A DNA stretch of 64,000 nt from Pseudomonadota bacterium (GTDB taxonomy: Bacteria > Desulfobacterota > Desulfobulbia > Desulfobulbales > JAGXFP01). The notes below the pieces were generated by a model. That model did not search any database and was not told where the DNA came from. It saw only the letters and a list, made by a program, of their open reading frames with translations. The position numbers and the translations under genes are program-made. This document shows, piece after piece, positions 1 to 49,774 of this stretch; position 1 is the stretch's first letter; each line of letters opens with the position of its first letter. The stretch is taken from the NCBI GenBank assembly GCA_018823285.1, contig JAHJIQ010000014.1, positions 23,556 to 87,555 on the forward strand, given 5' to 3'.

Positions 1-1
1 G

Positions 2-1813
2 TGGCAATCGGCAACTCTCTACCGGGAAATTGCCGAGGCAAGCGAACAGCCGGACTGGGAAAAAGTCGGGAATCTGTTCCGCGAATATTCATCGGCGTTC
101 AAAGGCACCGCGCGGGCGGAAGAGGCATATATTGAAGTGGCCAGAGCCCACATCGAAATGAAGTCGCTCCGCGAGGGTCTGAGTTACATCAATTTGTTCA
201 TGAAAAGGTATCCCTCTTCGATTTTTACGCCACGGGTTCTGGCGATGAAGGCCGATCTGCTGATGAAAATCGGCAGACGGGAAGAAGCCCTTGAGTTGTG
301 CAGGAAATTCATCGTCAACAAATCAGAGGATTACAGGCATCAGTATCCGATAATTGCCTCGATCTTTCTCGATCTCGGCCAACCCGATATTGCAGTTTCA
401 CTCGTTGACCAGGCCGTTTCGTCCATTGCGCCACTGTCTGAAGAGCTTTTCCGGGTGCTGGCCGTGAAAGGACGGTCCCTGACCCTGATGGATTCCGATG
501 AAAAAACAAAGAAGGGGCAGGAGATCCTCTTCTACCTCGCCAATGTCTCTGAAGACAACAAATTGAGATCCCAGGTGTTTTTTGATGTGGCGGAAAGTGT
601 TCTCAAAAGCGGGGAGAAGGCGGCCGCGCAACATCTTTATGATAAGGTATTGGCACTGGTCGGCAAAAATGAGAGAGCTGCCGTTTTCAGCCGCTTCCGG
701 ATTTCTTTGATCGGGGATGAACAGCGGCGAGCTAACGAACTCCAAAACAAGGCGGTCCTTGAGAACCCTGCCGGAGACCAACCCTACCTTGAGGTACTGG
801 AGAATTTCCCGCAATATCCGATCGCCCAGGACGCCCGTCTCGGACTGATGAAACGGGTGCTCTTCAGAGGGGAATCCGACAACGCCTTTGATTTGGGGAA
901 GGCCTATCTGCAGAATGGCGGAGGGGATGCCAGGAAAACAGTTATTGGTGCCCTGGGGGGGATTCTGGTGAAAAAGATTGAAGGTGCTCTCGCTGAAGGG
1001 AAGAATCCTGATGCCTTCGAGCTGTATCGGCGTGAGCATGCCATTGTTCAGGAGTATCCTGAAGGCCGGCTTCTCTTTCTGGTCGGACAGGCGCTGGAAG
1101 CCATGAACCTGTATGACCAGGCGTCGGTTGTGTATTACCGGGCCGTTGCCCTGAACCATCCCGATGACCAGAAAAGTGAACTCTATATGCGCAGGGCGGC
1201 ATTGTACATTAAAAATGGTGACTTTACGGCGGCTGAGCGGCTGCTGAATTATCTGGCGGATATCTACCAGGAGCAGCGCGAATCAGGAGAGGTTTTTCAT
1301 CTTACCGGTCAACTGCGGAGCGCTCAGGGGAAAATTGATGAGGCGGCAGAAGCCTTCGCCCGTGCGATGAAAGTTCCTGAAACCGGGGAGCGGCGTTCTG
1401 TTTATGCCGCGGCCCTGGTCAGGGTGCTCCATGCCCAGAAAAAACTTGAAGAGATGGCCGTGGTTCTTGCGGAGGCGGCTGACAAGAAATGGCTTGCCGG
1501 GGAAGAGCTGCAGACCCTCTATGGTCTTCTTGGTGATACCCGTTTGGAGAGAGGGGAAGGAGGTCTTGCCCTGAAGGCATACCGTGCAGCGATTGAAGAT
1601 GGATTGCCGACCGAAGGTGAACGGGTTCAGACGATCCATCTCCGTCTTGGTGATATTCTGGCATCATGGGGGATCACCGACAAAAGCAGAAAGCACTATC
1701 AGTTTGCCAGCAAGGGGAGTAATGAAAGATGGAGCCAGGTTGCTCTGGAGAGACTGCAGCAGGACAAAATTGATCAAAGCGTTGCAGGCCTTCGGGGTGT
1801 TCTTGATAAATAA
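2..1813 (+). CDS. TPR/helical-repeat protein, 5' end outside the window
   Basis: The frame of ORF 137..1813 stays open back to position 2 with no stop, so the window edge truncates the gene. The product is made of repeated Ala/Leu/Tyr-rich helix pairs (EEALELCRKF, YDQASVVYYRAVALN, GLALKAYRAAIE) typical of TPR-like scaffolds. No catalytic motif seen. Confidence 0.6.
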   Translation, partial: WQSATLYREIAEASEQPDWEKVGNLFREYSSAFKGTARAEEAYIEVARAHIEMKSLREGLSYINLFMKRYPSSIFTPRVLAMKADLLMKIGRREEALELCRKFIVNKSEDYRHQYPIIASIFLDLGQPDIAVSLVDQAVSSIAPLSEELFRVLAVKGRSLTLMDSDEKTKKGQEILFYLANVSEDNKLRSQVFFDVAESVLKSGEKAAAQHLYDKVLALVGKNERAAVFSRFRISLIGDEQRRANELQNKAVLENPAGDQPYLEVLENFPQYPIAQDARLGLMKRVLFRGESDNAFDLGKAYLQNGGGDARKTVIGALGGILVKKIEGALAEGKNPDAFELYRREHAIVQEYPEGRLLFLVGQALEAMNLYDQASVVYYRAVALNHPDDQKSELYMRRAALYIKNGDFTAAERLLNYLADIYQEQRESGEVFHLTGQLRSAQGKIDEAAEAFARAMKVPETGERRSVYAAALVRVLHAQKKLEEMAVVLAEAADKKWLAGEELQTLYGLLGDTRLERGEGGLALKAYRAAIEDGLPTEGERVQTIHLRLGDILASWGITDKSRKHYQFASKGSNERWSQVALERLQQDKIDQSVAGLRGVLDK

Positions 1814-2087: not shown

Positions 2088-3488
2088 ATGGATCGAGCCC
2101 CGAAAATACTGATTGTTGATAACGACCAGGAAATGCGCATCTCGCTTTTCGAGGCGATGAGCCGCAAGGGCTACGAGGTTTCGGTAGCTGAAAACGGCAG
2201 CATGGCCCTGAATATGGTCAAGCGCAATGCCCCGGATATCATGATTGCCGAGATCAGAATGCCTGAAATGGATGGCATGGAACTTCTCCGGAGCTGCCGC
2301 AAACATTACCCGGAAGTATCCATCATCCTGATCACCGCGCATGCCTCAATCGAAACGGCGGTCGAGGCGATGAAATGCGGGGCGTTTGATTATATCATCA
2401 AGCCCTTTCCGGTGGAGGTCGTTGAGGACACCGTCGAGAGGCTGATCATCTCGGCGATGAGCAGGCCTGCGCTGCAGACTGCCAGGGAAAGGACCAGGGG
2501 CAGAACCGAAAAACCGATTATCGGCAACGATAAAAAGCTCATGATGCTCATGGACCGGGCGCGAAGCGTTGCCTCCAGCAAGGCGACCGTTCTCGTGCTT
2601 GGTGAATCGGGTACCGGCAAGGAGGTTTTTGCCAGATACCTTCACAATGAAAGTGACAGGCGGGATGGCCCGTTTGTGGCTTTAAACTGTGCGGCGTTGC
2701 CGGAAACACTCCTTGAGAGCGAGTTGTTCGGCCATGAAAAGGGGGCTTTCACCGGTGCGGTCACCACCAAAAAGGGCAAGTTTGAACTGGCCGATCGCGG
2801 CACTCTGCTGCTCGATGAAATCGGGGAAATTCCCCTCCATCTTCAATCGAAACTCCTCAGGGTTCTCCAGGAAGAAGAGGTGGACCGGCTTGGCGGCAGA
2901 AATCCGATCAGTATCGATGTTCATGTTGTTGCCACCACCAATCGGTCTCTTGAAAATGCCGTCAGTGAAGGGGCTTTCCGCCAGGATCTCTACTATCGCC
3001 TCAATGTTATCCCTCTGGTTCTGCCGCCTCTGCGGGAACGTCCCGGCGACATTCTCATGCTGGCGGACCATTTTATTGAAAAATATTCGGTCCTCTACAA
3101 TAAAGAGTTCAAGAAGATGTCCGGCTCTTCGGTCAGCAGGTTTCTTGAGTACGAATGGCCGGGAAATGTCAGAGAGATGGAAAACCTGGTGGAAAGGGCG
3201 GTTCTTCTCTCCTCCGGCAGCATGCTCGATGTCGATGATTTCTGGATCAATGATAATGCCCCGATGGCCGGCAAAAAATCGCCGTTCGGTCCATCTTCTG
3301 CGGTAAGCTCCGTCATGGGGGTGCCGGACAAGATTCAGACTTTGAGGGAGGTTGAGCGTCAAATGATCCTACAGGCCCTTCGCCAGACCGACAATAATCG
3401 GACACATGCAGCCAAACTTCTGGGCGTCAGTGTCAGGACTCTTCGCAATAAACTTCATGAATACCGGACCCATGGTACTGTTGACTGA
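2088..3488 (+). CDS. Sigma-54-dependent transcriptional activator (NtrC family: receiver + AAA+ + Fis-type HTH), probable flagellar regulator
   Basis: Receiver-like N-terminus (ILIVDNDQE..PDIMIAEIRMPEMDG..LITAH..KPF). AAA+ core with Walker A GESGTGKE, the sigma-54 contact loop GAFTGA (EKGAFTGAV), Walker B LLLDEIGE and RQDLYYRLNV. C-terminal HTH NRTHAAKLLGVSVRTLRNKL. Sits directly upstream of flgB. Confidence 0.9.
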   Translation: MDRAPKILIVDNDQEMRISLFEAMSRKGYEVSVAENGSMALNMVKRNAPDIMIAEIRMPEMDGMELLRSCRKHYPEVSIILITAHASIETAVEAMKCGAFDYIIKPFPVEVVEDTVERLIISAMSRPALQTARERTRGRTEKPIIGNDKKLMMLMDRARSVASSKATVLVLGESGTGKEVFARYLHNESDRRDGPFVALNCAALPETLLESELFGHEKGAFTGAVTTKKGKFELADRGTLLLDEIGEIPLHLQSKLLRVLQEEEVDRLGGRNPISIDVHVVATTNRSLENAVSEGAFRQDLYYRLNVIPLVLPPLRERPGDILMLADHFIEKYSVLYNKEFKKMSGSSVSRFLEYEWPGNVREMENLVERAVLLSSGSMLDVDDFWINDNAPMAGKKSPFGPSSAVSSVMGVPDKIQTLREVERQMILQALRQTDNNRTHAAKLLGVSVRTLRNKLHEYRTHGTVD

Positions 3489-3696
3489 GTGCCGATTTCT
3501 CGTTGCCGCACCTTCATTCATTCCTGTCTTGTTATTCACAGATATTCAAATATATTAAATAATATCAGCTATTTGTCGTCGAGAAGAAGTGCCTTTCCCG
3601 CTGGAACGCAAGGAGGCATGTTCCATTGAGGTTCTGCTGCCGGAGGCTCAATGGAAGGCAATCATCCGCAAGGGTTAACCATTTGGTTGATTTTGC

Positions 3697-3712
3697 TGGC
3701 ATTTTTTTTGCA
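3697..3712 (+). promoter_or_regulatory. Sigma-54 (-24/-12) promoter upstream of flgB
   Basis: TGGCATTTTTTTTGCA: GG at 3698-3699 and GC at 3710-3711, the canonical spacing of TGGCACG-N4-TTGCW. It lies 49 nt upstream of the flgB ATG (3761). Confidence 0.65.
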
Positions 3713-3760: not shown

Positions 3761-4147
3761 ATGATGGACAAGAAACTGTTCGGCGGGTTTGTCGATATCT
3801 CGGCACGGGCGCTTGATACCCGCTATGCCAGGCAGGGGCTGATCCAGACCAACATCGCCAATATGGAAACTCCGGGCTACAAGGTGCAGGAGCTTCCGTT
3901 CAGGAAGGTGATGGAAAGCGTGATGACCCAAAAAGGCGAGCTTGCCACGACCAATGCCAGGCATATTTCTCCTGATCCGGTCGAAACCGGCCGCAGTCTG
4001 GAGTTTAAACAGGAGGACCGACCGCCGGATCTTGATGAGGAAATGGTAAAACTTTCCGAGAACCAGTTGATGTATGAATTGTCAACCAGGCTTGTCGGGA
4101 AAAAATTTGAAGGGCTCAAGTATGCCATTGATGAAGGAGGCCGCTGA
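3761..4147 (+). CDS. flgB: Flagellar basal-body rod protein FlgB
   Basis: From the internal ATG at 3761 (AGGAG 8-9 nt upstream) the product reads MMDKKLFGG..RQGLIQTNIANMETPGYK, the flg_bb_rod N-terminal signature. The 45-codon extension back to 3626 overlaps the predicted promoter and has no homology features. Confidence 0.9.
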   Translation: MMDKKLFGGFVDISARALDTRYARQGLIQTNIANMETPGYKVQELPFRKVMESVMTQKGELATTNARHISPDPVETGRSLEFKQEDRPPDLDEEMVKLSENQLMYELSTRLVGKKFEGLKYAIDEGGR

Positions 4148-4150
4148 TAA

Positions 4151-4585
4151 ATGGATATCCTGACCGCGATGAAGATAAGCGCTTCGGCCCTGAAGGCCGA
4201 AAGAACAAGGCTGAATATCAGTGCCATGAATCTTGCCAACGCCAACACCACCCGGACGGTTGAAGGCGGCCCGTACAAGGCGAAATCGGTCGTCTTCGGG
4301 GCAAGACCGCTGGAAAATGATTTCAGCGGTCATCTTGATCTGGCCGGCGCAAAGCTCAGGAAGGTAGAGGTGGTTGAGATCATTGAAGATAAGGCGCCTT
4401 TTAAAGAGGTTTACGATCCCTCTCATCCCGATGCGAATGAAAACGGGGTCGTCCTGATGCCCAATGTGAATGTGGTGGAACAGATGACCGATATCATGAG
4501 CGCCAGAAGGGCGTATGAGGCAAACGTGACTGCTCTGGATGCGGTCAAAAGCATGGCCCTGAAGGCTATGGATATCAGCAGGTAA
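4151..4585 (+). CDS. flgC: Flagellar basal-body rod protein FlgC
   Basis: MDILTAMKISASALKAERTRLNISAMNLANANTTRT at the N-terminus and SARRAYEANVTALDAVKSMALKAMDI at the C-terminus, the classic FlgC ends. Positioned after flgB. Confidence 0.95.
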   Translation: MDILTAMKISASALKAERTRLNISAMNLANANTTRTVEGGPYKAKSVVFGARPLENDFSGHLDLAGAKLRKVEVVEIIEDKAPFKEVYDPSHPDANENGVVLMPNVNVVEQMTDIMSARRAYEANVTALDAVKSMALKAMDISR

Positions 4586-4617
4586 CCGCAGAAAAAAAAG
4601 ACCCGGGAGAAACAGGA

Positions 4618-4923
4618 ATGATCAAGGATATTGGTGGTGTGAATGGTCTGCTGCAGAACAATCCGGCGGTAACGAAAGGGGGGGCAACCGGCGGCGATGG
4701 CGCGGCAGGATTTGCCGACCTGCTCAAAAGTCAGGTGGCCACGGTAAACGAAGCGATGCAGGAAGCTGACCAGGCTGCAACCGGGCTGGTTACCGGGCAG
4801 CATGCAAACATTCATGAGACGATGATCGCTCTTGAAAAGGCCAACGTTTCCTTCCGGCTGATGACCAAGATCCAGGGCAAGGTGATCAGTGCCTATCAGG
4901 AAATCATGAGGATGCAGCTTTAA
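4618..4923 (+). CDS. fliE: Flagellar hook-basal body complex protein FliE
   Basis: 101 aa. C-terminal ETMIALEKANVSFRLMTKIQGKVISAYQEIMRMQL matches the FliE family pattern. Synteny flgC-fliE-fliF. Confidence 0.9.
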   Translation: MIKDIGGVNGLLQNNPAVTKGGATGGDGAAGFADLLKSQVATVNEAMQEADQAATGLVTGQHANIHETMIALEKANVSFRLMTKIQGKVISAYQEIMRMQL

Positions 4924-4994
4924 GAACTGCCGGATTCCGGGGTTTGTAAACAGATGGTCGGGCTGGGCGCAAACAGCCCGTAAAGGAACTAGGT

Positions 4995-6614
4995 ATGGCT
5001 TCATACAAAGAGATGATGGACCAGGTGCTCGCCAATCTCAAGGGGCTCAGCATGGGGCAGCGGGTGGCGGCCCTGCTTCTGGTTGCGGTTGTGGTCGGCG
5101 GGTTGATGAGCATCACCACCGTCGGCGGCAGGCTCGATCAGAAGGTGTTGTATTCGGGACTTGCGGAAGAAGATGCGGCGGAGGTCGTTGCCAGGCTGAA
5201 GGACCTGCGGACGCCGTATACCCTGGAAAATAACGGGACCACCATCATGGTCCCGGCAAACCAGGTGTACGAGACGAGGCTTTCGCTGGCCGGTGAGGGG
5301 TTGCCCAGGGGCGGCGGGGTCGGTTTCGAGATCTTCGATAAGACCAGCTTCGGTACCACCGATTTTGTCCAGAGGATGAACTATCAGAGGGCGCTGCAGG
5401 GAGAACTGGCCAGGACCATCCGCCAGTTTCATCAGGTACTGGAGGCGCGGGTCCACCTGGCGACCCCCAAGGAGTCGGTATTCATTGAAGATGAAAAACC
5501 GGTCACCGCATCGATCAGTGTCAAGCTGAGAGGGAATGCCGGGCTGTCCAAACTCCAGATTTCCAGTATCGTGAATCTGGTCGCCACTGCCGTGCCGGGA
5601 TTGAGCAGTGACAACGTCACCCTGGTGGATACAACCGGCAGACTGCTGTATCGGAAGGATGGCGAGAGCGGCAGCATCATGACCGCAACCCAGCTTGAGT
5701 ATCAGCAGCATCTGGAAAACAGCCTGCGCCAGAAGGTCGAGAGCATGCTTGAGGAAGTGGTCGGGGTCAACAAGGTGAAGGCGCGGGTCACCGCCGATAT
5801 CGATTTTAACAGGGTAAACGTGACCGAGGAGAATTTCGACCCGGAAGGACAGGTGATCCGGAGTGAACAGTTCATGGTCGAAGGCGACAACCGGGAAGGT
5901 CTTGATCCCGGTGGAGTGCCGGGCGCCAAGGGAGACCTTGCCTCCTTTGCCGGGACCGGCAGCGGCGGGGCCGCGGCAAACGGATACCAGCGCAACAACA
6001 TTACCAGGAATTACGAAGTGAGCCGGGTGACCAGGCAGACCCAGGAAGCAAGCGGGATCATTAAAAGATTGTCGGTGGCCGTTATGGTTGACGGCAAGTA
6101 TGAAGCAGCGGCGGCCGGAGAGGGAGAAACTCCGGTCCTCACGTATGTTCCGCGGTCCGCCGAAGAACTCGCCTGGTTTGACAAGCTGGTGAAAAATACC
6201 ATCGGCTACAATGAGGAGAGGGCGGACCAGGTGGAGGTTGTTTCCATGTCCTTTGCCGCCTCGACCACCACGGAACCGAAAGAGACCTTGACAGACAAGT
6301 TGAGGCCATTCCTGGATCTGCTCCTGATGCCGATGGTCTACCTGGGGCTGGCCTTGATGGTCCTGCTGCTGGTCATCAGACCGCTGTTCAAGGTTCTGAC
6401 CAGTCCGTCAGCGATGTCATCGGGGGCGCTCCCGGGGAATCGATTCCAGACAGTTGTCGGAGGTGACATGGGGGGCATGATGCCTTCCGGTGATGAGGAT
6501 ATTTCCCTGATGCCGAAAGGGATGACCGACAAAGAGAAGATGTATAAACTGGCCCAGACCGATCCGGACCGGGCTGCGGATCTCGTCCGGCGATGGCTGC
6601 GCGAGGGTGTGTAA
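4995..6614 (+). CDS. fliF: Flagellar M-ring protein FliF
   Basis: 539 aa. N-terminal TM (VAALLLVAVVVGGLM), YscJ/FliF domain (LYSGLAEEDAAEVVARLKD..YTLENNGTTIMVP), C-terminal TM and an acidic FliG-binding tail. Confidence 0.95.
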   Translation: MASYKEMMDQVLANLKGLSMGQRVAALLLVAVVVGGLMSITTVGGRLDQKVLYSGLAEEDAAEVVARLKDLRTPYTLENNGTTIMVPANQVYETRLSLAGEGLPRGGGVGFEIFDKTSFGTTDFVQRMNYQRALQGELARTIRQFHQVLEARVHLATPKESVFIEDEKPVTASISVKLRGNAGLSKLQISSIVNLVATAVPGLSSDNVTLVDTTGRLLYRKDGESGSIMTATQLEYQQHLENSLRQKVESMLEEVVGVNKVKARVTADIDFNRVNVTEENFDPEGQVIRSEQFMVEGDNREGLDPGGVPGAKGDLASFAGTGSGGAAANGYQRNNITRNYEVSRVTRQTQEASGIIKRLSVAVMVDGKYEAAAAGEGETPVLTYVPRSAEELAWFDKLVKNTIGYNEERADQVEVVSMSFAASTTTEPKETLTDKLRPFLDLLLMPMVYLGLALMVLLLVIRPLFKVLTSPSAMSSGALPGNRFQTVVGGDMGGMMPSGDEDISLMPKGMTDKEKMYKLAQTDPDRAADLVRRWLREGV

Positions 6615-6617
6615 GAA

Positions 6618-7643
6618 ATGGCTAAGGTGAAAAAAGAGGGGTCCCCGGAAAATCTGACCGGGCCTGAAAAGGCGGCGATCTTTCTCCTGACCCTGGGTGA
6701 GGACTTCGCTTCACAGGTTTTCAAGCGTCTGGACAGCGATGATATCAAGACGGTCGGCCGTTTCATGTCCAAGATCGACAAGGTCGACAAGAACGATGTC
6801 GCGGCCCTGCTCGATGAGTTCAAGACCGATTCCGGCGATCATGATCTTTTCCTTTCAGGCGATGACATGCTCGAGCAGGCCCTGAAAAAGGCCCTGTCCG
6901 GCGACAAGGCCCATGAGCTGCTGGACGAGATCCGGTCGGACTGGAAACTGACCCTGTTCCAGAAAGCGAGAAAGCTCGAACCGAAAGTCCTGGTCAATTT
7001 CCTGACCAATGAACATCCCCAGACCATCGCGCTTCTCCTGTCGGTGCTGGACTATGCCCAATCGGCGGAGATTCTTTCCGAACTGAAGGAGGAGGTCCAG
7101 ATCGAGGTCGTGATGCGGATGGCCGAACTCGACAAGGTCAGCCCGGAAATCCTGGTGGAAATAGACCGGGTCTTGAACGAGGAGCTGATCTCCGTAGAAG
7201 GTATGGAAGGGCAGCGGCTGGGCGGGGTTGAGACCGTGGCCGAGATCCTGAATAACGCCGACCGCGCCCTTGAGGCTGCGGTCCTTGAAGGGGTTGAGGA
7301 ACAGCGGGAAAGTCTGGCCGATGAGATCAGGCGGTTGATGTTCGTCTTTGATGATCTTTACAATGTTGACGATCGGGGGATCATGGCCATTCTGAAAGAG
7401 GTGAGCACCGACGATCTGAAGCTCGCCCTGAGAACATCCACCGACGATCTGAAGGAGAAAATATTCAAGAACATGTCCTCCAGGGCCGTGGAGATGCTCA
7501 AGGAGGATATGGAAATCATGGGACCGGTTCGGGTCAAGGATGTTGAGGGGGCGCAGCAGTCCATTCTCAAGGTCGCCAAACGGCTTGAACAGGAGGGTAA
7601 GGTACAGTTGATGGGCGGCGGTGGTGACGATGAGTTCGTATAG
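6618..7643 (+). CDS. fliG: Flagellar motor switch protein FliG
   Basis: 341 aa. LTGPEKAAIFLLTLGED start, EHPQTIALLL, and the C-terminal torque-helix region MSSRAVEMLKEDME..VRVKDVEGAQQSIL. Confidence 0.95.
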   Translation: MAKVKKEGSPENLTGPEKAAIFLLTLGEDFASQVFKRLDSDDIKTVGRFMSKIDKVDKNDVAALLDEFKTDSGDHDLFLSGDDMLEQALKKALSGDKAHELLDEIRSDWKLTLFQKARKLEPKVLVNFLTNEHPQTIALLLSVLDYAQSAEILSELKEEVQIEVVMRMAELDKVSPEILVEIDRVLNEELISVEGMEGQRLGGVETVAEILNNADRALEAAVLEGVEEQRESLADEIRRLMFVFDDLYNVDDRGIMAILKEVSTDDLKLALRTSTDDLKEKIFKNMSSRAVEMLKEDMEIMGPVRVKDVEGAQQSILKVAKRLEQEGKVQLMGGGGDDEFV

Positions 7644-7651
7644 GATCCGGT

Positions 7652-8404
7652 ATGGCGATCATGAAAAACAGCAGTGGTGAAACCAACCCGGGATTCACCC
7701 CCTTCACGAGCATCCTGAGCCAGCATGAGGGAGAAAGGGTCTATGCGAGCGTTGACCCCGGTAAATTAAAGAGAGATGCCGAGGAGCAGGCCCGGATTTC
7801 AGCTGCCGAAATAGTCAGCAAGGGCAAGGCGGAGGCTGGCGAGACCCGGCAGAAGGCCTATGATGAAGGGTTTGCCAGGGGTCGCGAGGAAGGGCTTGCT
7901 GCAGTCAGGCGGGAGCACGATGCCATGCTTGTCCGGCTTCGTGAGCTGATGCAGGAGATTGAGGCCCGATGCGCGGGTGCGGTTGACCTGTTTGCCGAAC
8001 AGGAGGTGCTTGAGCTGGTCAAGGTCATGGTTGAACGACTGGTCAATCACGAGGTTTCCGTCAATCCGAGGGTCATCAGGGCGACGCTCATCAAGGCCTT
8101 GAGCTATGTAGTGGAAAATTCCGAGGTCCGGGTGTCGTTGAACCCGGATGATTTCAATCGGCTGAAGGAAGCGGGTCTTGAAGAGGCCGTGCTCCTTGAA
8201 GGGCTCTCCCGGATTCAGCTGATGGAGGATCACGCCATTGAAGCGGGAGGGTGCCTGCTGAACACCGATTACGGTGAAATCGACGCGACCCTTGCCAATC
8301 GGCGGCAGAAACTTTATCAGGCAGTGGACCGGGCGTTCATGTCGGCGCTCGCCAAAGACGTTCCGCCGGAAGATGACGGCGGCAAAGAAGAGGGCCGCAG
8401 ATGA
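7652..8404 (+). CDS. fliH: Flagellar assembly protein FliH
   Basis: 250 aa. Charged coiled-coil N-terminal half, then the FliH/YscL-type C-terminal domain (VNPRVIRATLIKAL..VRVSLNPDDF..GGCLLNTDYGEIDATL). Stop overlaps the fliI start (ATGA). Confidence 0.8.
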   Translation: MAIMKNSSGETNPGFTPFTSILSQHEGERVYASVDPGKLKRDAEEQARISAAEIVSKGKAEAGETRQKAYDEGFARGREEGLAAVRREHDAMLVRLRELMQEIEARCAGAVDLFAEQEVLELVKVMVERLVNHEVSVNPRVIRATLIKALSYVVENSEVRVSLNPDDFNRLKEAGLEEAVLLEGLSRIQLMEDHAIEAGGCLLNTDYGEIDATLANRRQKLYQAVDRAFMSALAKDVPPEDDGGKEEGRR

Positions 8405-9708
8405 ATCTGGCGTTGCCGATCCAGGAGGCGGGCCGGGTTGTTCTGGAGTCGGTCCGGGGCAGAGTCAGCCAGGTGATCGGGATGGTGATCGAGAGCGATG
8501 GTCCGGGCATTCCGGTCGGTAGTATCTGTGAGGTGGATGTTTACCGCGGTGGCGGCAAGGTGCGGGCCGAAGTGGTCGGCTTCAAGGGGGACAAGGTCCT
8601 GCTGATGCCCCTTGGCGAGATGCGGGGGGTTGAGCCGGGCAGTTTGATCAATCTTATTGGCGACCAGGCCGAGGTGCCGGTTTCTGAGGCGTTTCTGGGC
8701 CGGGTGATCGACGGTTTCGGCAATCCCATGGACGGCAAGGGGCCGATCCATTCGGAAGTGACCTATCCCCTCTACGCGGCGCCGTTGAACCCGATGGAGC
8801 GGGAGCGAATCCTTGAACCCGTTGATGTCGGAGTCCGGGCGATCAATGGCCTTCTGACCCTCGGCAAGGGGCAGCGGATCGGCATTCTCGCCGGTTCCGG
8901 GGTCGGCAAGAGTACCCTGCTGGGGATGATCGCAAGGCACACCGCCGCTGATATCAGTGTCATCGCCCTGATCGGGGAGCGGGGCAGGGAACTGAAGGAT
9001 TTTATCGAACGGGATCTCGGCAAAGAGGGACTTGCCCGGTCGGTGGTGGTCGTGGCGACCTCGGACCAGCCGCCGCTCGTCAGGATGCGGGGGGCGTACC
9101 TCGCGATGGCCATTTCTGAATATTTCCGCGATCTGAACCGTGATGTGATCCTGATGATGGATTCGGTCACCAGGTTTGCCATGTCGAGCCGGGAGGTCGG
9201 ACTTGCCATCGGTGAGCCGCCGACCTCCAGGGGATATACCCCATCGGTGTTCTCCCAGTTGCCGAAACTCCTGGAACGGGCCGGATCGTGCCAGGGAAAG
9301 GGGAGCATTACCGGGATCTACACCGTCCTGGTGGAGGGCGACGATATGAACGAGCCCATCGCCGATGCAGTGCGCTCGATCGTCGACGGCCATATCCTGT
9401 TGAGCCGCGACCTGGCCAGTCACGGGCATTATCCGGCCATTGAAGTTCTGGGCAGTGTCAGCCGGTGCATGACTGATGTGGTCTCTGCGGCACAGGTCGA
9501 GAGCGCCCACGGTTTTCTTGATCTGCTTGCCACCTATCGGCGTTCCGAAGATCTGATCAATATCGGCGCCTATGCCGCCGGGAGCAACCCGAAAATCGAC
9601 CGGGCGATCGGCAAAATCGATTCATTGAACAGGTATCTCCGGCAGCGGGTTGAAGAGAAGGTGACTTTTGCCGACAGTGTGCAGCCGTTAAAAGCGCTGC
9701 TCAACTGA
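8401..9708 (+). CDS. fliI: Flagellum-specific ATPase FliI
   Basis: 435 aa. Walker A GSGVGKST, Walker B VILMMDSVTRFA, F1/T3SS-ATPase core (GSITGIYTVLVEGDDMNEPIAD). Confidence 0.95.
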   Translation: MNLALPIQEAGRVVLESVRGRVSQVIGMVIESDGPGIPVGSICEVDVYRGGGKVRAEVVGFKGDKVLLMPLGEMRGVEPGSLINLIGDQAEVPVSEAFLGRVIDGFGNPMDGKGPIHSEVTYPLYAAPLNPMERERILEPVDVGVRAINGLLTLGKGQRIGILAGSGVGKSTLLGMIARHTAADISVIALIGERGRELKDFIERDLGKEGLARSVVVVATSDQPPLVRMRGAYLAMAISEYFRDLNRDVILMMDSVTRFAMSSREVGLAIGEPPTSRGYTPSVFSQLPKLLERAGSCQGKGSITGIYTVLVEGDDMNEPIADAVRSIVDGHILLSRDLASHGHYPAIEVLGSVSRCMTDVVSAAQVESAHGFLDLLATYRRSEDLINIGAYAAGSNPKIDRAIGKIDSLNRYLRQRVEEKVTFADSVQPLKALLN

Positions 9709-9737
9709 ACCGCAAACAGACTCCGTCGTGAAAAAAT

Positions 9738-10187
9738 ATGGCATACCAGTTCAGGCTTGAAACATTACTGACCGTGCGCCGCAACCTTGAGGAGCTTGCC
9801 CAGATGAAGCTCGCAAACGAGATGCGCCTTCTTGCCGGGCACCGGAAGCGAAAGCAGGAGCTGGAGAACTCCCGGGCGGCATTCATGGATGAACTGGAAA
9901 ACAGTAAAAAAGGCAGGATGGACAGCGCCCTCTATATCTTTTTCATGGAATCGATGCGCAGTGCGGAACTGATGATCCGTTCCCAGAATCAGGTCATCGA
10001 GTCCCAGAGACAGGTGGTGGAACAGGCAAGGGAAGCGCTGACTGAAAAAGTGAAATCCAGAAAGATCATTGAAAAGGCCAGGGAAAGGGATTACAAAAAA
10101 TATCTTCAGGAGATGCTCCGGCTCGAATATAAAGAGAATGACGAGATCATCTCCCTCCGCAATGGGAATCCGGGTCTGACCCCATGA
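9738..10187 (+). CDS. fliJ: Flagellar export chaperone/stalk protein FliJ
   Basis: 149-aa all-helical protein starting MAYQFRLETLLTVRRNLEE (FliJ-type start). Positioned after fliI. Confidence 0.75.
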   Translation: MAYQFRLETLLTVRRNLEELAQMKLANEMRLLAGHRKRKQELENSRAAFMDELENSKKGRMDSALYIFFMESMRSAELMIRSQNQVIESQRQVVEQAREALTEKVKSRKIIEKARERDYKKYLQEMLRLEYKENDEIISLRNGNPGLTP

Positions 10188-10897: not shown

Positions 10898-12319
10898 ATG
10901 AAAACAGCGTATGATTTCTACAAAAAGTACCTTTCCGAAAACATCTCCGACGCCGACACTCTGGAGCGGATGCGGCAGGTGATCTCCGAATTTGCCGCCC
11001 GCGCCCCGAAGATGGTGGTCATGAAATGCATCGACGGCCGGGTGCACGGCAGCAATGCGAAGGGGTATCCGCCGACAACCATCCGTTTTGGAAGAACCGA
11101 CGGCAACAAGGTCTCGCTCGACAAGAGCAATTTCTGGTACTGGAACCGGATCGATCGTGCGGTAAAAGACGCCCATTTCAACACCCCCGGAACGCCCGCG
11201 GTCTTTATCGCCTTCATGCATCATTCCGCTCGGGGTTTCGGCTGCGCATCGCATCACAACAACGGTGAGGCGGCCCTGCAGTCGGTCCTGGCCCAGGTGG
11301 CCGAGGTCAGAAAAACCTATCAGGAATCCGAACTGTACGTCCTGGGAGGCGACACCAATACCGACATCATGGCGGAGACCCTGATCTTTCCGGGAAATGC
11401 CCGGATCGAAAACGAAGAGGTCATCCGTTACTGCAATCTGAAAGAACCACGGGACGTGTTCCACGAATTTTTTCTCAAAAACGGAATCACCGATGTCGCC
11501 ACCGCCCGAAACGTCGGCAACCAGACTCCCGGGCAGCTCCTTTCCGGGATCAATCCTGAAATGTTCGCCAATTTCCAGACGAGTCTCAATATGGAGAACT
11601 ATCTGCTCCGGGAGATTACCACCACGCTCAATAAGGACCGTGGCGACCTGAAAAGGATTATCCGACCCGACATTCTCGATTACCTCTTCCTTACCCTCGA
11701 CCAGGTGCAGATCCCGGAAACCCTTGTCGGCCCGATCCTCTACCAGATCATCTGGAATATCACCTATGCCCTGTACCAGACCAATCTGAACAGCACTTTG
11801 AGCCCGGAAGAGCTGGAGCAGCGTCTCGATCATGGTGAGGAGCTGGTCTGCTATGGAGACGGCTTCGAGATGCTGCCGCGAAACAAGACGGTGCTTGTCA
11901 AAACCGGCCGCGGTGATGATGTCGATGCGCTTACCGTGGCAAAGAAAGTGCTCGAAAACAACCGGCAACGGTACAGGCAGGAGCATAGTCTTCTGGTCCA
12001 TATCAATATCGAGGTGAACGGAGAAATGATGTCGTGGGATGATTTCAACGACAATGTCGGCTCCCGGATTCTGACCATGCGCCGCAATGTCGATCATGTC
12101 TTCGGCATGGACGTTGCGATCCTCACCTCGTATTCATACCGGGATCAGAAGCGGTTCTACCCGGTGATCATCTCAAAAAATGATCCGCGGCTGGTCTACT
12201 ATGCAGACGTGATCTCCGAAATAAACTCCACCCAGAAGTTCAGCAATATCTCCCTGAAAGCACAGGAAATGCTATACAAGGCAAGTTGCATCGGGGCGAT
12301 GAATTCCGAGAGAAAGTAG
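10898..12319 (+). CDS. CsoSCA-like (carboxysome-shell-type) beta-carbonic anhydrase homologue, no N-terminal domain
   Basis: 473 aa. Motifs KC44ID46GR48V, FIAFMH108H..GFGC116ASHHNNGEAALQSVL, GGDTNTDI and DHGEELVCYGDGFE. From memory these line up with the Zn ligands (Cys/His/Cys), the Asp-Arg dyad and flanking blocks of Halothiobacillus CsoSCA. GAGGGG RBS before the ATG. Confidence 0.7.
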   Translation: MKTAYDFYKKYLSENISDADTLERMRQVISEFAARAPKMVVMKCIDGRVHGSNAKGYPPTTIRFGRTDGNKVSLDKSNFWYWNRIDRAVKDAHFNTPGTPAVFIAFMHHSARGFGCASHHNNGEAALQSVLAQVAEVRKTYQESELYVLGGDTNTDIMAETLIFPGNARIENEEVIRYCNLKEPRDVFHEFFLKNGITDVATARNVGNQTPGQLLSGINPEMFANFQTSLNMENYLLREITTTLNKDRGDLKRIIRPDILDYLFLTLDQVQIPETLVGPILYQIIWNITYALYQTNLNSTLSPEELEQRLDHGEELVCYGDGFEMLPRNKTVLVKTGRGDDVDALTVAKKVLENNRQRYRQEHSLLVHINIEVNGEMMSWDDFNDNVGSRILTMRRNVDHVFGMDVAILTSYSYRDQKRFYPVIISKNDPRLVYYADVISEINSTQKFSNISLKAQEMLYKASCIGAMNSERK

Positions 12320-12371
12320 TGAGCGGGTTCATTGCATCCAGCGCCAATTGCCCTAAGGTCAACTTCCAAAA

Positions 12372-12734
12372 GTGCCAATATCGGATTATGTAAGGACAAT
12401 CAATGGACGGACAACGATACGAGTGCTAAATGCCATTAAATCGGGGGTGCTGGTTGCCGGAATGAGTAAACAGGCTGTGTTGGTCGCCTACGGCCCACCT
12501 CCCGAGCAGGGAACCATCTCAACAGAGGCCAATCAATGGACATCTTGGCAGAGTCGTTTTGATCGAAGAGGTATCTGTTTTAATGAAGAAAACAAATTGC
12601 TTTCGGTGTGCCCAACCGGCATCAAGGGGCAAGGGAAGAATGTTATAGAAAGTTTCGGGCGCAAAATTCGAGGTTTGCTCGGCGGTGATGAGTTCAATCA
12701 GATTCAAGGCTTTCTGACAGCAGAAAAGCCCTGA
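12372..12734 (+). CDS. Hypothetical protein with an SmpA/OmlA(BamE)-like segment, possibly a remnant
   Basis: GTG-initiated 120-aa ORF. GMSKQAVLVAYGPPPEQ resembles the BamE/SmpA core. There is no signal peptide, and an in-frame stop lies 15 nt upstream of the GTG. Lies in a lower-GC stretch. Confidence 0.35.
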   Translation: MPISDYVRTINGRTTIRVLNAIKSGVLVAGMSKQAVLVAYGPPPEQGTISTEANQWTSWQSRFDRRGICFNEENKLLSVCPTGIKGQGKNVIESFGRKIRGLLGGDEFNQIQGFLTAEKP

Positions 12735-12748
12735 CGGCATAACACGAG

Positions 12749-13024
12749 GTGACAATGGGAGCGATTTTTGAAGCAAGCTGCAACCGGTGTGGTCTGCAGT
12801 TTGATTATTCCGACGGCGGCGGCTTTTATTATGACCGCTACCGCTGTGAAGATTGCGGTGAGACCATAGCAGTCACAGTTGACCGGGACTTGAACGACGC
12901 GCCTCCTCCGACCATAGAACTCTGCCGGTGCGGGGGCCGTTTTACACTGAATGCGAAACCACGTTGCCCTGACTGTAGATTAACCGACATCACAACGGGC
13001 GAAGTCATCTTGTTTGAAGACTGA
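12749..13024 (+). CDS. Small zinc-ribbon protein (four Cys pairs)
   Basis: About 90 aa with CNRC, CEDC, CRC and CPDC pairs (two predicted Zn-ribbon knuckle pairs). GAGGTG precedes an alternative ATG at 12755. Confidence 0.5.
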   Translation: MTMGAIFEASCNRCGLQFDYSDGGGFYYDRYRCEDCGETIAVTVDRDLNDAPPPTIELCRCGGRFTLNAKPRCPDCRLTDITTGEVILFED

Positions 13025-13101
13025 GCCCTGAAGAAACCTGCATTCTTTATTTTCTTCTCGAATACAGGTGTTTGCCGTTGCGACAACTGGAAAAAGAAAA
13101 A

Positions 13102-13482
13102 ATGAAATCGTACAGAGCCATCATATCGATCCTGTTTCTGCTCTGTGCTTCCTGCGCCACCCAATCTTTGTGGGAAGCAACTGACCCGGATAAATATATT
13201 CAGATAAAGTTCACAGATATCACGGAGCAGGAGCTCCAGGAAAAGGGTGTCGAATACATCAAAGACCAAAAAACCCATTTGTACTATGTCAACAAGAGCT
13301 CTGCGGAGAAATTTACAGGGTACGCGATACGGCTATTTGCTACTCCGGTAACTGTGGTAGTTGATGCAACAACGGTCGCAATTTTCGGAATTGCCATGGC
13401 TTTTACCGAAGGTGCGATTGATGATTACGAGGAAGATTCAAAGGCGGACCCACATGGGCCCGGAGAAAGAAATGATTGGTAA
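13102..13482 (+). CDS. Putative lipoprotein, unknown function
   Basis: From the ATG at 13102 the product starts MKSYRAIISILFLLCASCAT (signal peptide with a lipobox-like LCASC). It has a C-terminal hydrophobic stretch and an acidic tail. AT-rich codon usage. Confidence 0.5.
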   Translation: MKSYRAIISILFLLCASCATQSLWEATDPDKYIQIKFTDITEQELQEKGVEYIKDQKTHLYYVNKSSAEKFTGYAIRLFATPVTVVVDATTVAIFGIAMAFTEGAIDDYEEDSKADPHGPGERNDW

Positions 13483-13603
13483 AATATGTGCATTAAACCT
13501 GAGCAGGATATCTACGTGGAGCCTGATCGGATATTTTGACCAGATCATCGTCAGAGCGAATAAAATATCAAGTCTGTTTGTATCACTTTTCGAGTAGATC
13601 AAA

Positions 13604-14272
13604 ATGATGAAACGATTGCTTGTAACACTGTTGTTCCTGGTGCTTGCTTTACCTTCCCATGCCGCCATAAAACCGAGCGTTCAATTGAACGTTCCTTTAG
13701 TAAATCAGGGCAAGATGCTCTGCGGTCCTGCCACAATGGAAATGCTTTTCCGTTATTGGGGTGTGTATGATTACGATCAATACGATATTGCCGGATCGCT
13801 CCTGAAGCAGTTTTCTCAAACCGAGAGATACCGGAAATCAGGGATTCTGAAGACCGACCCTGTTGACTGGAATAAATATCCGGGGACAGGCACTATCAAT
13901 ATGCGGGAATTCCTGAAAAGGTTCGGGCGTACCCATAACATGATGATGGAATATGAGCCGGACTCGTCAGAGGCAAAGGTTCGGAAAAGAGATGAATTGT
14001 TTTACAAAGTGAAAGAGTATGTATCCAATGGCATACCGGTGGTGGTTCACCAGTACTGGAGGTTGCCTAAAGCCAAAGGTCATTATCGGGTCGTTACCGG
14101 CTATAATGAAAGCCGTCGGGAAGTGTATCTGAATGATGCTGACGGCGGAAAACGGCTGGTGCAAACGTACGATGATTTCCTGAAACTCTGGGACGTCAAT
14201 CAAAGGTGGATGCATTATAATGCGATTGTCTTTAATACCGACAGACAGAGATTAAACATAACTCTACCATAG
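13604..14272 (+). CDS. Secreted papain-like cysteine peptidase (C39-like, Peptidase_C39_2 type)
   Basis: Signal peptide MMKRLLVTLLFLVLALPSHA. Gln-x5-Cys nucleophile block VNQGKMLCGPATMEML, His block KGHYRVVTGY, and Asp block VYLNDADGG. Confidence 0.7.
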   Translation: MMKRLLVTLLFLVLALPSHAAIKPSVQLNVPLVNQGKMLCGPATMEMLFRYWGVYDYDQYDIAGSLLKQFSQTERYRKSGILKTDPVDWNKYPGTGTINMREFLKRFGRTHNMMMEYEPDSSEAKVRKRDELFYKVKEYVSNGIPVVVHQYWRLPKAKGHYRVVTGYNESRREVYLNDADGGKRLVQTYDDFLKLWDVNQRWMHYNAIVFNTDRQRLNITLP

Positions 14273-14353
14273 ATGAAGGCCGGACTTACCTTGGCCCTGC
14301 AATGACTTTATGGAAGATAAGCAATTCGGGGACCCGATTAGAGAATATTAGAG

Positions 14354-15277
14354 ATGATTAAAAAAGATGTTTTCAATATGGATGTGAAGGAACGGTTCCG
14401 GTCTTCGGCGAAGGACAAAATCTACCGCTTTATCATGGCCGACCGGATGATCAAGGGGGCGATTGTCCATTCCACCCGGGTGGTGAATGAGATGCGGGCA
14501 AACCATGAAACCGGGCCTTTGGAAACCTTGATTCTGGGGCAGGCGTATATTGCGGCAAGCCTGATCTGTTCCGGTCTGAAAGGGAAAAATGACCGGATCA
14601 GCATGAACATCCAGTGTTCGGGCCCTGTGAAGGGGCTTGATGTTGAGGCGAATGTCTTTGGTGAGGTGAGGGGGTATCTGAAGGCAAACCCCATTGTTCT
14701 CGATCATCCTGAAAGAATGAGCGGGATGCCGGCACTTTTCGGAGCGGGTTTCCTTACGGTAACCCAGTATCTGGAAGATGCCCCGGCCCCGTACTCCGGG
14801 CAGGTAGCCCTTGAGCATGGCAGCATTGCCGAGGACCTGGCCAATTATTTTCTGGTCTCGGAGCAGAATCCCACTGCTTTTAAATTGAGTGTGTTTTTTG
14901 ATGACAAGGAAGAGGTTGCAGGCGCGGGGGGGATTTTTCTCCAGGCAATGCCGGGTGTCGAACCGGCAAAAGTCGGTGAGGCGGAGAGATTGATCCTGAT
15001 GATTGATTCCTTAGGCGAACTCTTTGCAAGGGGAGAGAATCCCGAGGAAATTATCCGGAAGAGATTTGCAGACCTCAAACCAAAATTCCTGGACAATAGC
15101 CGGGTCGAGTTTTTCTGCAGGTGTTCAGAGGAGAAGATGAAGAGTTATCTGCAGAGTTTGCCCAAAGAAGACAAAGAAGACCTGCGGGAAAACGGCCCTT
15201 TTCCCATGGAGATCCGCTGCCATCACTGCAACTCGGCGTATCGGTTCACTCAGGAAGAGCTAAGAACACTTCCTTGA
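14354..15277 (+). CDS. hslO: Redox-regulated chaperone Hsp33
   Basis: 307 aa. The C-terminal zinc switch FFCRCSEEKM...IRCHHCNSAYRF (CxC...CxxC) and an Hsp33-type N-terminal domain (RFIMADRMIKGAIVHSTRVVNEM). Confidence 0.9.
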   Translation: MIKKDVFNMDVKERFRSSAKDKIYRFIMADRMIKGAIVHSTRVVNEMRANHETGPLETLILGQAYIAASLICSGLKGKNDRISMNIQCSGPVKGLDVEANVFGEVRGYLKANPIVLDHPERMSGMPALFGAGFLTVTQYLEDAPAPYSGQVALEHGSIAEDLANYFLVSEQNPTAFKLSVFFDDKEEVAGAGGIFLQAMPGVEPAKVGEAERLILMIDSLGELFARGENPEEIIRKRFADLKPKFLDNSRVEFFCRCSEEKMKSYLQSLPKEDKEDLRENGPFPMEIRCHHCNSAYRFTQEELRTLP

Positions 15278-15349
15278 CGAAAAAAGGGCATAACACTTCC
15301 CCTCAACCTGGCGTTAAATAAACCTTAAACCGGGCCAAAGGAGCAAGGG

Positions 15350-15565
15350 ATGAAAATCTGCCGGATCTCCGGAGACAAGTCAGTCGAAACGATTCATGTG
15401 GACTATCCTGCAGAGGTGTTTTGTGACGCCTGCAGCGAACTCATGGAAATCGATAATCGGGAAAATCCAATCTGCTCCTTCCTGGCGTATGACCCTGCTC
15501 TGGGGGACTGCTGTTCCAACTGCGGTAAATCCACAGAAGAGGAAAAAAGGGAGCAAGGGTTATAA
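15350..15565 (+). CDS. Small Cys-rich hypothetical protein (7 Cys in 71 aa)
   Basis: CDAC and CCSNC motifs. AAGGAG-like sequence (aaaggagcaaggg) before the ATG. No homologue recognised. Confidence 0.4.
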   Translation: MKICRISGDKSVETIHVDYPAEVFCDACSELMEIDNRENPICSFLAYDPALGDCCSNCGKSTEEEKREQGL

Positions 15566-15693
15566 GTCCCTTTCCTTCCGGGATTTTCGTGAAGAGTTGA
15601 TCCGCTACCGAATCCAATAAGATATTCACCGAAAGAATCCCCGCCGCATTTATTGACTTTATGATCTTTTTTATAAGAGCATAGACGATAAAG

Positions 15694-15722
15694 GACCCTC
15701 GCGAGGGTTGGTTGTTTTTTTC
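15694..15722 (+). terminator. Possible intrinsic terminator
   Basis: GACCCTCGCGAGGGTT palindrome followed by GGTTGTTTTTTTT. The stem is short and it lies about 130 nt after the 71-aa ORF. Confidence 0.4.
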
Positions 15723-15779
15723 GTCCGTGTTTGAAGCCGGGCATTACTTCGTTTTGAACAATCAGGGAGGTTGGAAAGG

Positions 15780-16094
15780 GTGATTCTGATTCTGAAAGGA
15801 GCTTTTCCGCAAAAGAGTATCAATCACGCAGCAAAAACATTCGCAGCACTTCCACCGATGCCCGCCACCGTTAAAAGGCAGGGGCCGTATTTCAGCTTTA
15901 CCGGTGCCGAGCAGATCAATGTGACGACACTGTATTCATTCAATAATGAGCTGACTTTTGACGGGAACAAAAAATTCATCGAGAAACGCCTGCAGGAATT
16001 TTCCAATGTTCCGGGTTTTACCTATTCCCTGGAAGCCTGGTTGAACATGGAAGAAGCAATTCTTGCCGTGAACAGCTCGCAAAGACAGGCGTGA
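15780..16094 (+). CDS. Hypothetical protein
   Basis: The ORF track starts at TTG 15771, but GGGAGG at 15765-15770 is better spaced for the in-frame GTG at 15780. No recognisable motif. Confidence 0.35.
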   Translation: MILILKGAFPQKSINHAAKTFAALPPMPATVKRQGPYFSFTGAEQINVTTLYSFNNELTFDGNKKFIEKRLQEFSNVPGFTYSLEAWLNMEEAILAVNSSQRQA

Positions 16095-16317
16095 CATGTT
16101 TTGAAGATGTCAGAACGGGTGTGGAATACCGCATTAACGCAAAACCAATCATATGAACCCGGATCAACATGACGATTGAGCAGGAGTGATTTGTTGATCA
16201 GTGAAGCGGAAATGGTAATTTCCTCGTGAGTGATCTCCTGATTGACAAAAGAGCGATCCCGAGTCATATCATCAAAGTATGGGTTGCCGATTAACTTCAA
16301 ATCTACAGGAAGGATCT

Positions 16318-17014: not shown

Positions 17015-17030
17015 TGGCATGGCTTTTGCT
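17015..17030 (+). promoter_or_regulatory. Sigma-54 (-24/-12) promoter upstream of fliK
   Basis: TGGCATGGCTTTTGCT: GG at 17016-17017 and GC at 17028-17029, canonical spacing. It lies 88 nt upstream of the fliK GTG (17118), inside a 385-bp non-coding spacer. Confidence 0.65.
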
Positions 17031-18878: not shown

Positions 18879-18931
18879 AGACCAATGTTTGAACTGTTTC
18901 CGGATTCCGGAAGCAGGGAAGAGGAAAAATC

Positions 18932-19597: not shown

Positions 19598-19669
19598 GAG
19601 AAGGATTATTAATGAGCCAGGCCGGAAGGATTCGGCGGGCCTAGAGGAAGACAACAAGGAGGTAAGGCA

Positions 19670-49721: not shown

Positions 49722-49774
49722 GGGGCCAGCTCCTGGTGTACGATTTTAAAGTTGGTTCATCTCAATAAATGTTG

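Follow-up and report, generated by a model that had tools for sequence, protein, structure and literature searches.

The flagellar regulator gene and its product

We describe here a transcriptional activator of flagellar type whose receiver domain has Glu at the position of the phosphorylated Asp. It is encoded in a stretch of 64,000 nucleotides (positions 23,556 to 87,555 of contig JAHJIQ010000014.1, forward strand; hereafter the window, with positions counted from its first nucleotide) from a metagenome-assembled genome (MAG) of a Desulfobulbales-like bacterium. An earlier note, made from the letters of this DNA alone, had pointed to this residue and to the lack of a neighbouring kinase gene, and had proposed that the regulator works without phosphorylation. 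The gene lies directly 5' of flgB-flgC-fliEFGHIJ, and the gene and its key codons are placed as follows:

2088–3488, plus strand: gene of a sigma-54 enhancer-binding protein, most likely of the FlrC/FleR type, 466 aa (Pfam and list of open reading frames)
2121–2123, plus strand: codon AAC of Asn12, in the column of the second, metal-binding Asp of the pair DD ('DD2'; alignments)
2250–2252, plus strand: codon GAG of Glu55, at the phospho-acceptor column (NtrC D54, FleR D53; ungapped phmmer alignments)
2334–2336, plus strand: codon of Thr83, the conserved Thr, which is kept (alignment); the next residue, Ala84 (T+1), replaces a 94%-conserved Gly
2400–2402, plus strand: codon of Lys105, the conserved Lys, which is kept and is followed by Pro106 (alignment)

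The open reading frame (ORF) is complete, begins with MDRAPKILIVDNDQEM... and is immediately preceded by an AGGA Shine-Dalgarno-like motif. Pfam matched residues 7–114 to Response_reg (PF00072, 101.5 bits against a cut-off of 30.2), residues 144–310 to Sigma54_activat (PF00158, 239 bits), and further parts of the protein to AAA_lid_14 and to the Fis-type helix-turn-helix (HTH) domain HTH_8 (418–459, 57 bits). The layout is thus a receiver (7–114), a linker predicted to be disordered (~126–148), an AAA+ domain (144–385) and an HTH (418–459). In the translation the AAA+ motifs GESGTGKE, GAFTGA and LLLDEIGE, the last with its DE, are intact, and the protein has what defines a sigma-54 enhancer-binding protein, namely an AAA+ domain with Walker A, Walker B and GAFTGA, plus a Fis-type HTH. 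No NCBIfam equivalog cut-off was reached, the LuxO, ZraR, AtoC, NtrC, FlbD and FlgR models all remaining below theirs (AtoC 492 against 714 bits, NtrC 428 against 559, FlbD NF050807 419 against 750, FlgR NF049963 372 against 750). The FleQ-type N-terminal domain PF06490 is absent from the Pfam matches of the regulator, whose N-terminus is a near-canonical Response_reg domain. From its domains and position, the gene product is most likely an FlrC/FleR-type response regulator of a polar-flagellum-style sigma-54 cascade.

Glu at the phospho-acceptor column

In phmmer alignments, residues 7–120 of the regulator matched residues 6–119 of the NtrC receiver (1dc7) with zero gaps, which placed E55 on NtrC D54, N12 on NtrC D11 and D13 on NtrC D12. 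This receiver was the best match among solved structures (E 9e-23), followed by that of FleR (7w9h, E 4e-22), and the same ungapped register was obtained with FleR, NtrC1 and Spo0F, that is, four solved receivers agree. The DD pair reads D11-N12. N12 aligns with FleR D10, which is a ligand of the active-site metal (PMC10696123), and therefore corresponds to the DD2 position. T83, Y102, K105 and P106 are all kept. Compared with a canonical phosphorylatable receiver, the domain is without the acceptor Asp and without the full DD pair, and it has the Thr, the Tyr switch and the Lys; being a recognised receiver without an acceptor Asp, it belongs to the pseudo-receivers or aspartate-less receivers as these have been defined (PMC4395418, PMC12632262). 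An AlphaFold2 prediction with 48 orthologues gave a canonical (beta-alpha)5 receiver fold with a predicted local distance difference test score (pLDDT) of 85–97, in which E55 closes strand 3 at its C-terminal end, T83 likewise closes strand 4 and K105 comes shortly after strand 5. The earlier note had placed Glu55 at the acceptor column by eye, had read the acidic pocket as D11-N12-D13 with Asn as the middle residue and had listed the downstream Thr and Lys as kept; the alignments uphold this assignment at each of these positions.

The assignment also holds in a comparison with orthologues. We collected the 120 nearest homologues (58–69% identity; the query itself is P0001) from 5.8 billion proteins, a set that includes Desulfurivibrio, Thiovibrio and MAGs of the Desulfobulbaceae and Desulfurivibrionaceae. 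Column 55 is Asp in 118 of these 120 proteins, and the sole exceptions, both with Glu, are the query and P0002, its closest relative (69% identity). Column 12 is Asp in 117, Asn in the query and His (CAT) in P0002, the pocket of which thus reads D-H-D ... E. The codons of Glu55 differ (GAG in the query, GAA in P0002), therefore the Glu has persisted through ~31% protein divergence. Moreover, the P0002 gene is the same in an NCBI MAG and in an independent Logan assembly, with 0 mismatches in 1407 bases. In a background sample of 194 receivers from unrelated loci, which included paralogous sigma-54 activators at 38–50% identity, the acceptor column was Asp in 193 cases and Glu in none. A protein search with the receiver only yielded no further Glu members, its matches, mostly fragments and proteins from other families, having Asp at the acceptor column throughout; likewise, a scan of metagenome contigs with a receiver-only alignment gave one close match and no further Glu members among the matches listed.

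The query and P0002 were sisters in 196 of 200 neighbour-joining bootstraps with the regulator protein, and in 481 of 500 with concatenated FliF, FliG and FlgC (942 columns). The pair falls inside a five-genome group (413/500), in which Asp and an adjacent kinase gene occur together in each of the other three, P0003, P0007 and P0005.

Gene order and the missing kinase gene

Gene order was examined in 11 loci, among them the query locus (L085) and that of P0002 (L081, L082). Upstream of the regulator gene, the window begins with two features:

1–1813, plus strand: 3' part of a gene for a tetratricopeptide repeat (TPR) protein of 695 aa, the start of which lies upstream, outside the window (full gene, L085 7639–9726)
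1814–2087, no strand: intergenic gap of 274 bp, at the position of the kinase gene in Asp-bearing sister genomes (synteny)

Six loci with an Asp regulator carry a kinase gene: those of Desulfurivibrio alkaliphilus (L083), Thiovibrio frasassiensis (L168) and four MAGs (L084, L086, L087, L169). They represent the closest Asp-bearing relatives (P0003, P0007, P0005) and three more distant ones. All six share the order ftsEX (on the opposite strand), receiver-less sigma-54 activator, TPR protein of ~690 aa, kinase, regulator, and flgB onward, a layout like those of flrA-flrBC and fleQ-fleSR. The kinase is FlrB/FleS-like, cytoplasmic and 326–394 aa long, and is encoded by a gene of ~1.0–1.1 kb immediately 5' of the regulator gene, which it abuts or overlaps in several of the six loci. 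The larger kinases consist of PAS, HisKA and HATPase_c domains; the two smallest (L086, L087) have a HATPase_c match only.

The query and P0002 have the same order minus the kinase, with 274 bp and 197 bp, respectively, between the TPR and the regulator genes. No kinase remnant was detected in the 274-bp gap by tblastn with two orthologous kinases (E ≤ 10). A tblastn search of the window and 8 kb upstream of it found no relocated FlrB-like kinase, the only match being a generic one (28%) to a HATPase_c protein encoded at 57077–58471. The remark that no histidine kinase gene flanks the regulator gene is therefore correct for this window, and the cognate kinase that belongs to the FlrBC, FleSR and FlgSR systems is not encoded between the TPR and the regulator genes in the window or in L081/L082. 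No sigma-54 promoter was identified 5' of the regulator gene, where a weak GG-N10-GC at 1977 is the only candidate.

The history of the Glu pair would be most simply explained by a single deletion of the kinase and a single change from Asp to Glu, both in the ancestor shared by the query and P0002. A second group of relatives, P0105, P0090 and P0110 (L170–L172), also is without an adjacent kinase gene but keeps Asp55, the DD pair, the Thr and the Lys. Their gaps between the TPR and the regulator genes are short:

L170, 5827–6000: 174 bp
L171, 4872–5000: 129 bp
L172, 4988–5000: 13 bp

Two of the three group with the kinase-bearing P0117 (491/500), so that a second, independent kinase loss appears to have occurred at this locus. 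A kinase whose gene lies elsewhere presumably still phosphorylates these Asp proteins.

The TPR gene is in the same position in 11 of 11 loci, after the FlrA-like activator gene and before the kinase or regulator gene, and the N-terminus of its product (MKLSQARLVNESRRFLVVVLFLLFEVTIPSPVPAVG) resembles a signal peptide or a membrane anchor. The earlier note had named this protein as a possible means of control in place of the kinase. Since it is constant with or without a kinase and is apparently exported or membrane-anchored, it is unlikely to replace a cytoplasmic kinase, and we rejected it as a candidate for that role.

Conservation of the receiver and of the ATPase domain

To compare the two domains, deviations were counted in the 120 proteins at columns with a conservation of 85% or more in the other sequences. 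The receiver deviates at 11 of 52 such columns in the query and at 13 of 52 in P0002; these are the two highest values among the 120 proteins, for which the median is ~4%. The AAA+ domain deviates at 3 of 158 columns in the query and at 4 of 157 in P0002 (receiver versus AAA+, Fisher p ~1e-5), and that of the regulator is ~80% identical to its orthologues. In the Asp proteins without an adjacent kinase (P0105, P0090 and P0110) far fewer deviations, 3–5, were counted in 51–53 receiver columns. Changes common to both Glu proteins affect positions 12, 51, 52, 55, 84 (T+1, Gly to Ala), 87, 88 and 112, and are located at the active site and on the side of strand 4, helix 4 and helix 5. We regard the receiver as a remodelled and not a decaying domain, because its fold is confidently predicted (pLDDT 85–97), its match to PF00072 reaches 101 bits and the Thr/Tyr/Lys switch is kept.

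Candidate promoters, target genes and neighbourhood

Downstream of the regulator gene, the following features were identified:

3697–3711, plus strand: sigma-54 -24/-12 element TGGCATTTTTTTTGC, with 1 mismatch, ~50 bp 5' of the flgB start (3761)
3761–10187, plus strand: flgB-flgC-fliE-fliF-fliG-fliH-fliI-fliJ operon, all ORFs intact (Pfam Flg_bb_rod, FliE, YscJ_FliF, FliG, FliH, ATP-synt_ab, FliJ)
17015–17029, plus strand: second sigma-54 promoter-like element TGGCATGGCTTTTGC, 5' of fliK-flgD-flgE (17118–22039), these ORFs also being intact

A TGGYAY-N5-TTGCW element is present 5' of flgB in 9 of 9 loci inspected. The activator likely acts on the flgB-fliJ operon. A perfect 10-nt inverted repeat (TTCCATTGAG-N16-CTCAATGGAA, 3621–3656), ~40 bp 5' of the flgB sigma-54 promoter, is a candidate enhancer site.

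Two genes 5' of the regulator, outside the window, L085 encodes a sigma-54 activator without a receiver at the position of FlrA/FleQ (6364–7605). Only ~87 residues, without any Pfam domain, precede its AAA+ domain. In the relatives the calls for this gene range from 338 to 461 aa, its N-terminal region or the start calls being variable.

Elsewhere in the window, ~6 kb of apparently non-flagellar genes (10898–16731) separate the fliJ/MgtE_N-like genes from fliK. They comprise a 473-aa ORF without Pfam match (10898–12319), a C39-like peptidase gene (13604–14272) and an Hsp33-like gene (14354–15277); unlike in the window, fliK follows almost directly in L081 and L083. Farther downstream we noted a CHASE2-domain Ser/Thr protein kinase gene beside a PP2C-like phosphatase ORF (48957–52318, minus strand) and the gene of the HATPase_c protein, which has 464 aa and no HisKA match (57077–58471, plus strand), none with an evident flagellar link. 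In the D. alkaliphilus locus (L083 12889–14434) fliF is divided between two called ORFs of 350 and 170 aa, which points to a frameshift or an error in sequencing.

A regulator that probably works without phosphorylation

The regulator probably no longer responds to phosphorylation. The earlier note had suggested this from the pocket residues, and the inference is strengthened by two results: the nearest Asp relatives have a kinase gene 5' of the regulator gene and both Glu genomes have lost it, and the receiver has changed at many conserved positions where the ATPase domain has not. Sequence and analogy together make it moderately probable that the regulator is kinase-independent and at least partly constitutively active, with a plausible role of Glu55 as a phosphomimic. 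Where the acceptor Asp is replaced, Glu is the most frequent substitute, with a share of 26% among aspartate-less receivers, and it can make activation independent of phosphate (PMC4395418); NtrC D54E, for which the same paper cites Klose, Weiss and Kustu (1993), is such a phosphomimic. Moreover, DD2-to-Asn and Asp-to-Glu are typical pseudo-receiver substitutions, and a review of pseudo-receivers from 2025 also proposes Glu as an active-state mimic (PMC12632262).

How a receiver of this kind would act on the ATPase depends on the mode of control. The linker (~126–148) is predicted to be coil, with pLDDT <50 over residues 127–143 in the AlphaFold2 prediction, and is the least conserved part of the regulator (9–35% identity). 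The receiver has A-H-A where the negatively regulated activators NtrC1 and DctD have G-H-G. In a study of FleR, positive control was assigned from an unstructured linker and the lack of a GHG motif, and unphosphorylated or D53A FleR had low ATPase activity only (PMC10696123). By analogy, a positive mode of control, as in NtrC and FleR, is plausible for the present regulator. If it holds, the activator would be weak with a non-phosphorylatable receiver, unless its active state is stabilised in another way, for which Glu in the acceptor position is the classical means.

The course of events that we propose is the following. The ancestral regulator would have been phosphorylated on Asp55 by an FlrB/FleS-like cytoplasmic PAS kinase encoded immediately 5' of it. 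In the common ancestor of the query and its sister genome the kinase gene would have been deleted and the acceptor Asp changed to Glu, after which the metal-binding Asp12 would have drifted, to Asn in the query and to His in the sister. Such a receiver would no longer accept phosphoryl groups. With a side chain that exceeds that of Asp by one methylene, Glu55 may bring its carboxylate into contact with the kept Thr83 and Lys105, and these contacts may bias the receiver to the active conformation, as in the engineered NtrC D54E. Under positive control, the active-like receiver would support assembly of the AAA+ ring across the flexible linker, and any synthesis of the protein would lead to activation of the sigma-54 promoters 5' of flgB and fliK. 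Control would thereby move to the regulator's own expression or to other partners, with loss of the kinase-mediated assembly checkpoint.

Several points weigh against this interpretation. Asp-to-Glu changes do not always activate: CheY, PhoB and Spo0A need additional changes, the Glu of ChxR is dispensable for its activity (PMC4395418), and in some pseudo-receivers Glu has been disproved as the source of activity (PMC12632262). The positive-control reading depends on a low-confidence linker prediction and on analogy. The search for a relocated kinase covered ~72 kb of a 180-kb contig of an incomplete MAG. Absence of the kinase at the locus is not by itself diagnostic of a loss of phosphorylation, because P0105, P0090 and P0110 keep the full Asp pocket without an adjacent kinase gene. 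Finally, the co-occurrence of Glu and kinase loss is a single phylogenetic event and not a replicated correlation.

Other explanations

A kinase-independent regulator need not be constitutive. Its pseudo-receiver might instead be set by a protein partner or a ligand, with Glu55 in a structural role, and we consider this unlikely. The model would be Caulobacter FlbD/FliX: FlbD, an FlgR/FlrC/FleR-like activator of rod and hook genes, works without a cognate kinase, under the control of FliX (PMC7064773). Binding of ligands or partners is frequent among pseudo-receivers (PMC12632262), and the surface on the beta4-alpha4-beta5 side that is changed in both Glu proteins (84, 87, 88, 112) would fit a new interaction surface. 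However, the regulator is not an FlbD orthologue, as judged from its score with the FlbD model, and a candidate partner was not found: the one neighbour that is conserved is the TPR protein, which is indifferent to the kinase and has a signal-peptide-like N-terminus.

Alternatively, the regulator could be locked in an unphosphorylated, low-activity state as a dispensable protein or a competitor, with the promoters driven by the FlrA/FleQ-like activator and Glu and Asn reflecting relaxed constraint. The presence of this second activator two genes upstream, the faster evolution of the receiver than in relatives and the failure of Glu to activate some receivers (PMC4395418) would agree with such a state. 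Nevertheless, we judge it quite improbable. Purifying selection on the AAA+ and DNA-binding domains is no weaker than in any of the orthologues (3–4 deviations in ~158 columns, all motifs intact), the Glu is kept in both lineages despite codon drift, and the switch Thr, Tyr, Lys and Pro are kept. By analogy with FleR and its low ATPase activity in the unphosphorylated form, a locked-off protein would be expected to decay, and this regulator has not.

Covalent control by another residue or enzyme, either Ser/Thr phosphorylation or methylation or phosphorylation of Glu55 itself, seems very improbable. Modification of Glu is possible in principle, and a Ser/Thr kinase and a PP2C-like phosphatase are encoded in the window, yet no case is known in which phosphorylated Glu plays a part in bacterial signalling (PMC4395418); the Ser/Thr kinase gene is 46 kb away without a link to flagellar genes, and the metal-binding Asp needed for phosphotransfer chemistry is gone. 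Although the changes from Asp to Glu and from Asp to Asn each require a single base and the source is a MAG, chance or a sequencing or assembly artefact is excluded, because the sister lineage has the same Glu by another codon (and another residue at position 12) in a gene that is identical in two independent assemblies, and because the kinase gene is absent from both Glu genomes and 11–13 conserved receiver positions have changed as well.

Significance and comparison with known systems

In Vibrio, Pseudomonas and Campylobacter, FlrBC, FleSR and FlgSR tie the transcription of genes for rod and hook to the building of the MS ring, the rotor and the export apparatus (PMC7064773, PMC12607845). 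If the regulator described here became fixed in an active-like state after deletion of the kinase gene, the checkpoint on MS-ring and export-apparatus assembly would have been removed. We tentatively suggest, giving it somewhat less than even chances, that one Desulfobulbales lineage represents a natural 'hard-wiring' of the polar-flagellum checkpoint, in which a FlrB-like kinase, of a kind that senses MS-ring and export-apparatus assembly, was deleted and the regulator rescued by a phosphomimetic Asp-to-Glu change, with sigma-54 flagellar genes then expressed free of the checkpoint. In that case, the sister genomes would be the state before (Asp and kinase) and the third clade (Asp, no adjacent kinase) a contrasting outcome, giving an evolutionary series for the decay of two-component systems into constitutive regulators. 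The transition would be recent, as sister genomes at ~67–69% identity keep Asp and kinase, and the Glu lineage has lost both and remodelled only the receiver. The activation mechanisms of pseudo-receivers remain a mystery, and few have been traced to phosphorylatable ancestors (PMC12632262). Two questions become testable: does a natural Asp-to-Glu change suffice for a positively regulated sigma-54 activator to remain functional when its kinase is gone, and how is flagellar assembly controlled once an FlrB/FleS-type checkpoint kinase has been removed? The practical significance is modest, since the organism is an uncultured one known from a MAG and the substitution pattern is a textbook one.

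In domain composition (receiver, sigma-54 AAA+ and HTH) the regulator resembles FlrC of Vibrio cholerae, FleR of Pseudomonas aeruginosa and FlgR of Campylobacter jejuni. Its gene also is located, like theirs, beside early flagellar genes and 3' of a receiver-less FlrA/FleQ-like activator gene, with sigma-54 promoters before the rod and hook genes. Moreover, in related genomes its orthologues have a cytoplasmic PAS kinase as partner, as in the FlrB/FleS pairing, and it shares with FleR a short unstructured linker between receiver and AAA+ domain and the lack of a GHG motif. FlrC and FleR need phosphorylation at D54 and D53, respectively (PMC10696123, PMC12607845). Unlike them, the query has Glu at the acceptor position, Asn at the metal-binding Asp and no cognate kinase gene; its locus differs from theirs also by the TPR gene between the two activator genes.

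Engineered NtrC D54E belongs to the same family and is changed at the same column, with Thr and Lys kept as potential partners for the longer carboxylate. Unlike in NtrC D54E, the Glu of the query is natural, kept in two diverged lineages and accompanied by loss of the DD2 Asp and at least 10 other changes in the receiver.

Kinase-independent flagellar sigma-54 activators, namely FleQ/FlrA and FlbD, are already known. FlbD of Caulobacter crescentus, a sigma-54 activator that acts on flagellar rod and hook genes, likewise has a receiver-like N-terminus and lacks a cognate kinase. It differs in its lineage and in being regulated by FliX; here no FliX-like partner was identified, no search for FliX having been made. 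FleQ and FlrA are flagellar sigma-54 activators with a non-phosphorylated N-terminal domain, as is predicted for the query. That domain is a divergent FleQ-type one in FleQ and FlrA, whereas the receiver of the query is near-canonical, and in the query locus their role more probably belongs to the separate activator without a receiver that is encoded two genes upstream.

The combination of Glu at the acceptor and Asn at DD2 is already known as the commonest, textbook signature of pseudo-receivers. Most characterised aspartate-less receivers and pseudo-receivers are orphans, and the Lys is usually kept (PMC4395418, PMC12632262). As in ChxR, the plant pseudo-response regulators and fungal Rim15p, the receiver fold is kept and the acceptor Asp is replaced; in the regulator the replacement is Glu, with Asn at DD2 and the Lys kept. 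Those proteins have other output domains, and unlike theirs, the canonical, kinase-paired ancestry of the present regulator can be read from its sister genomes.

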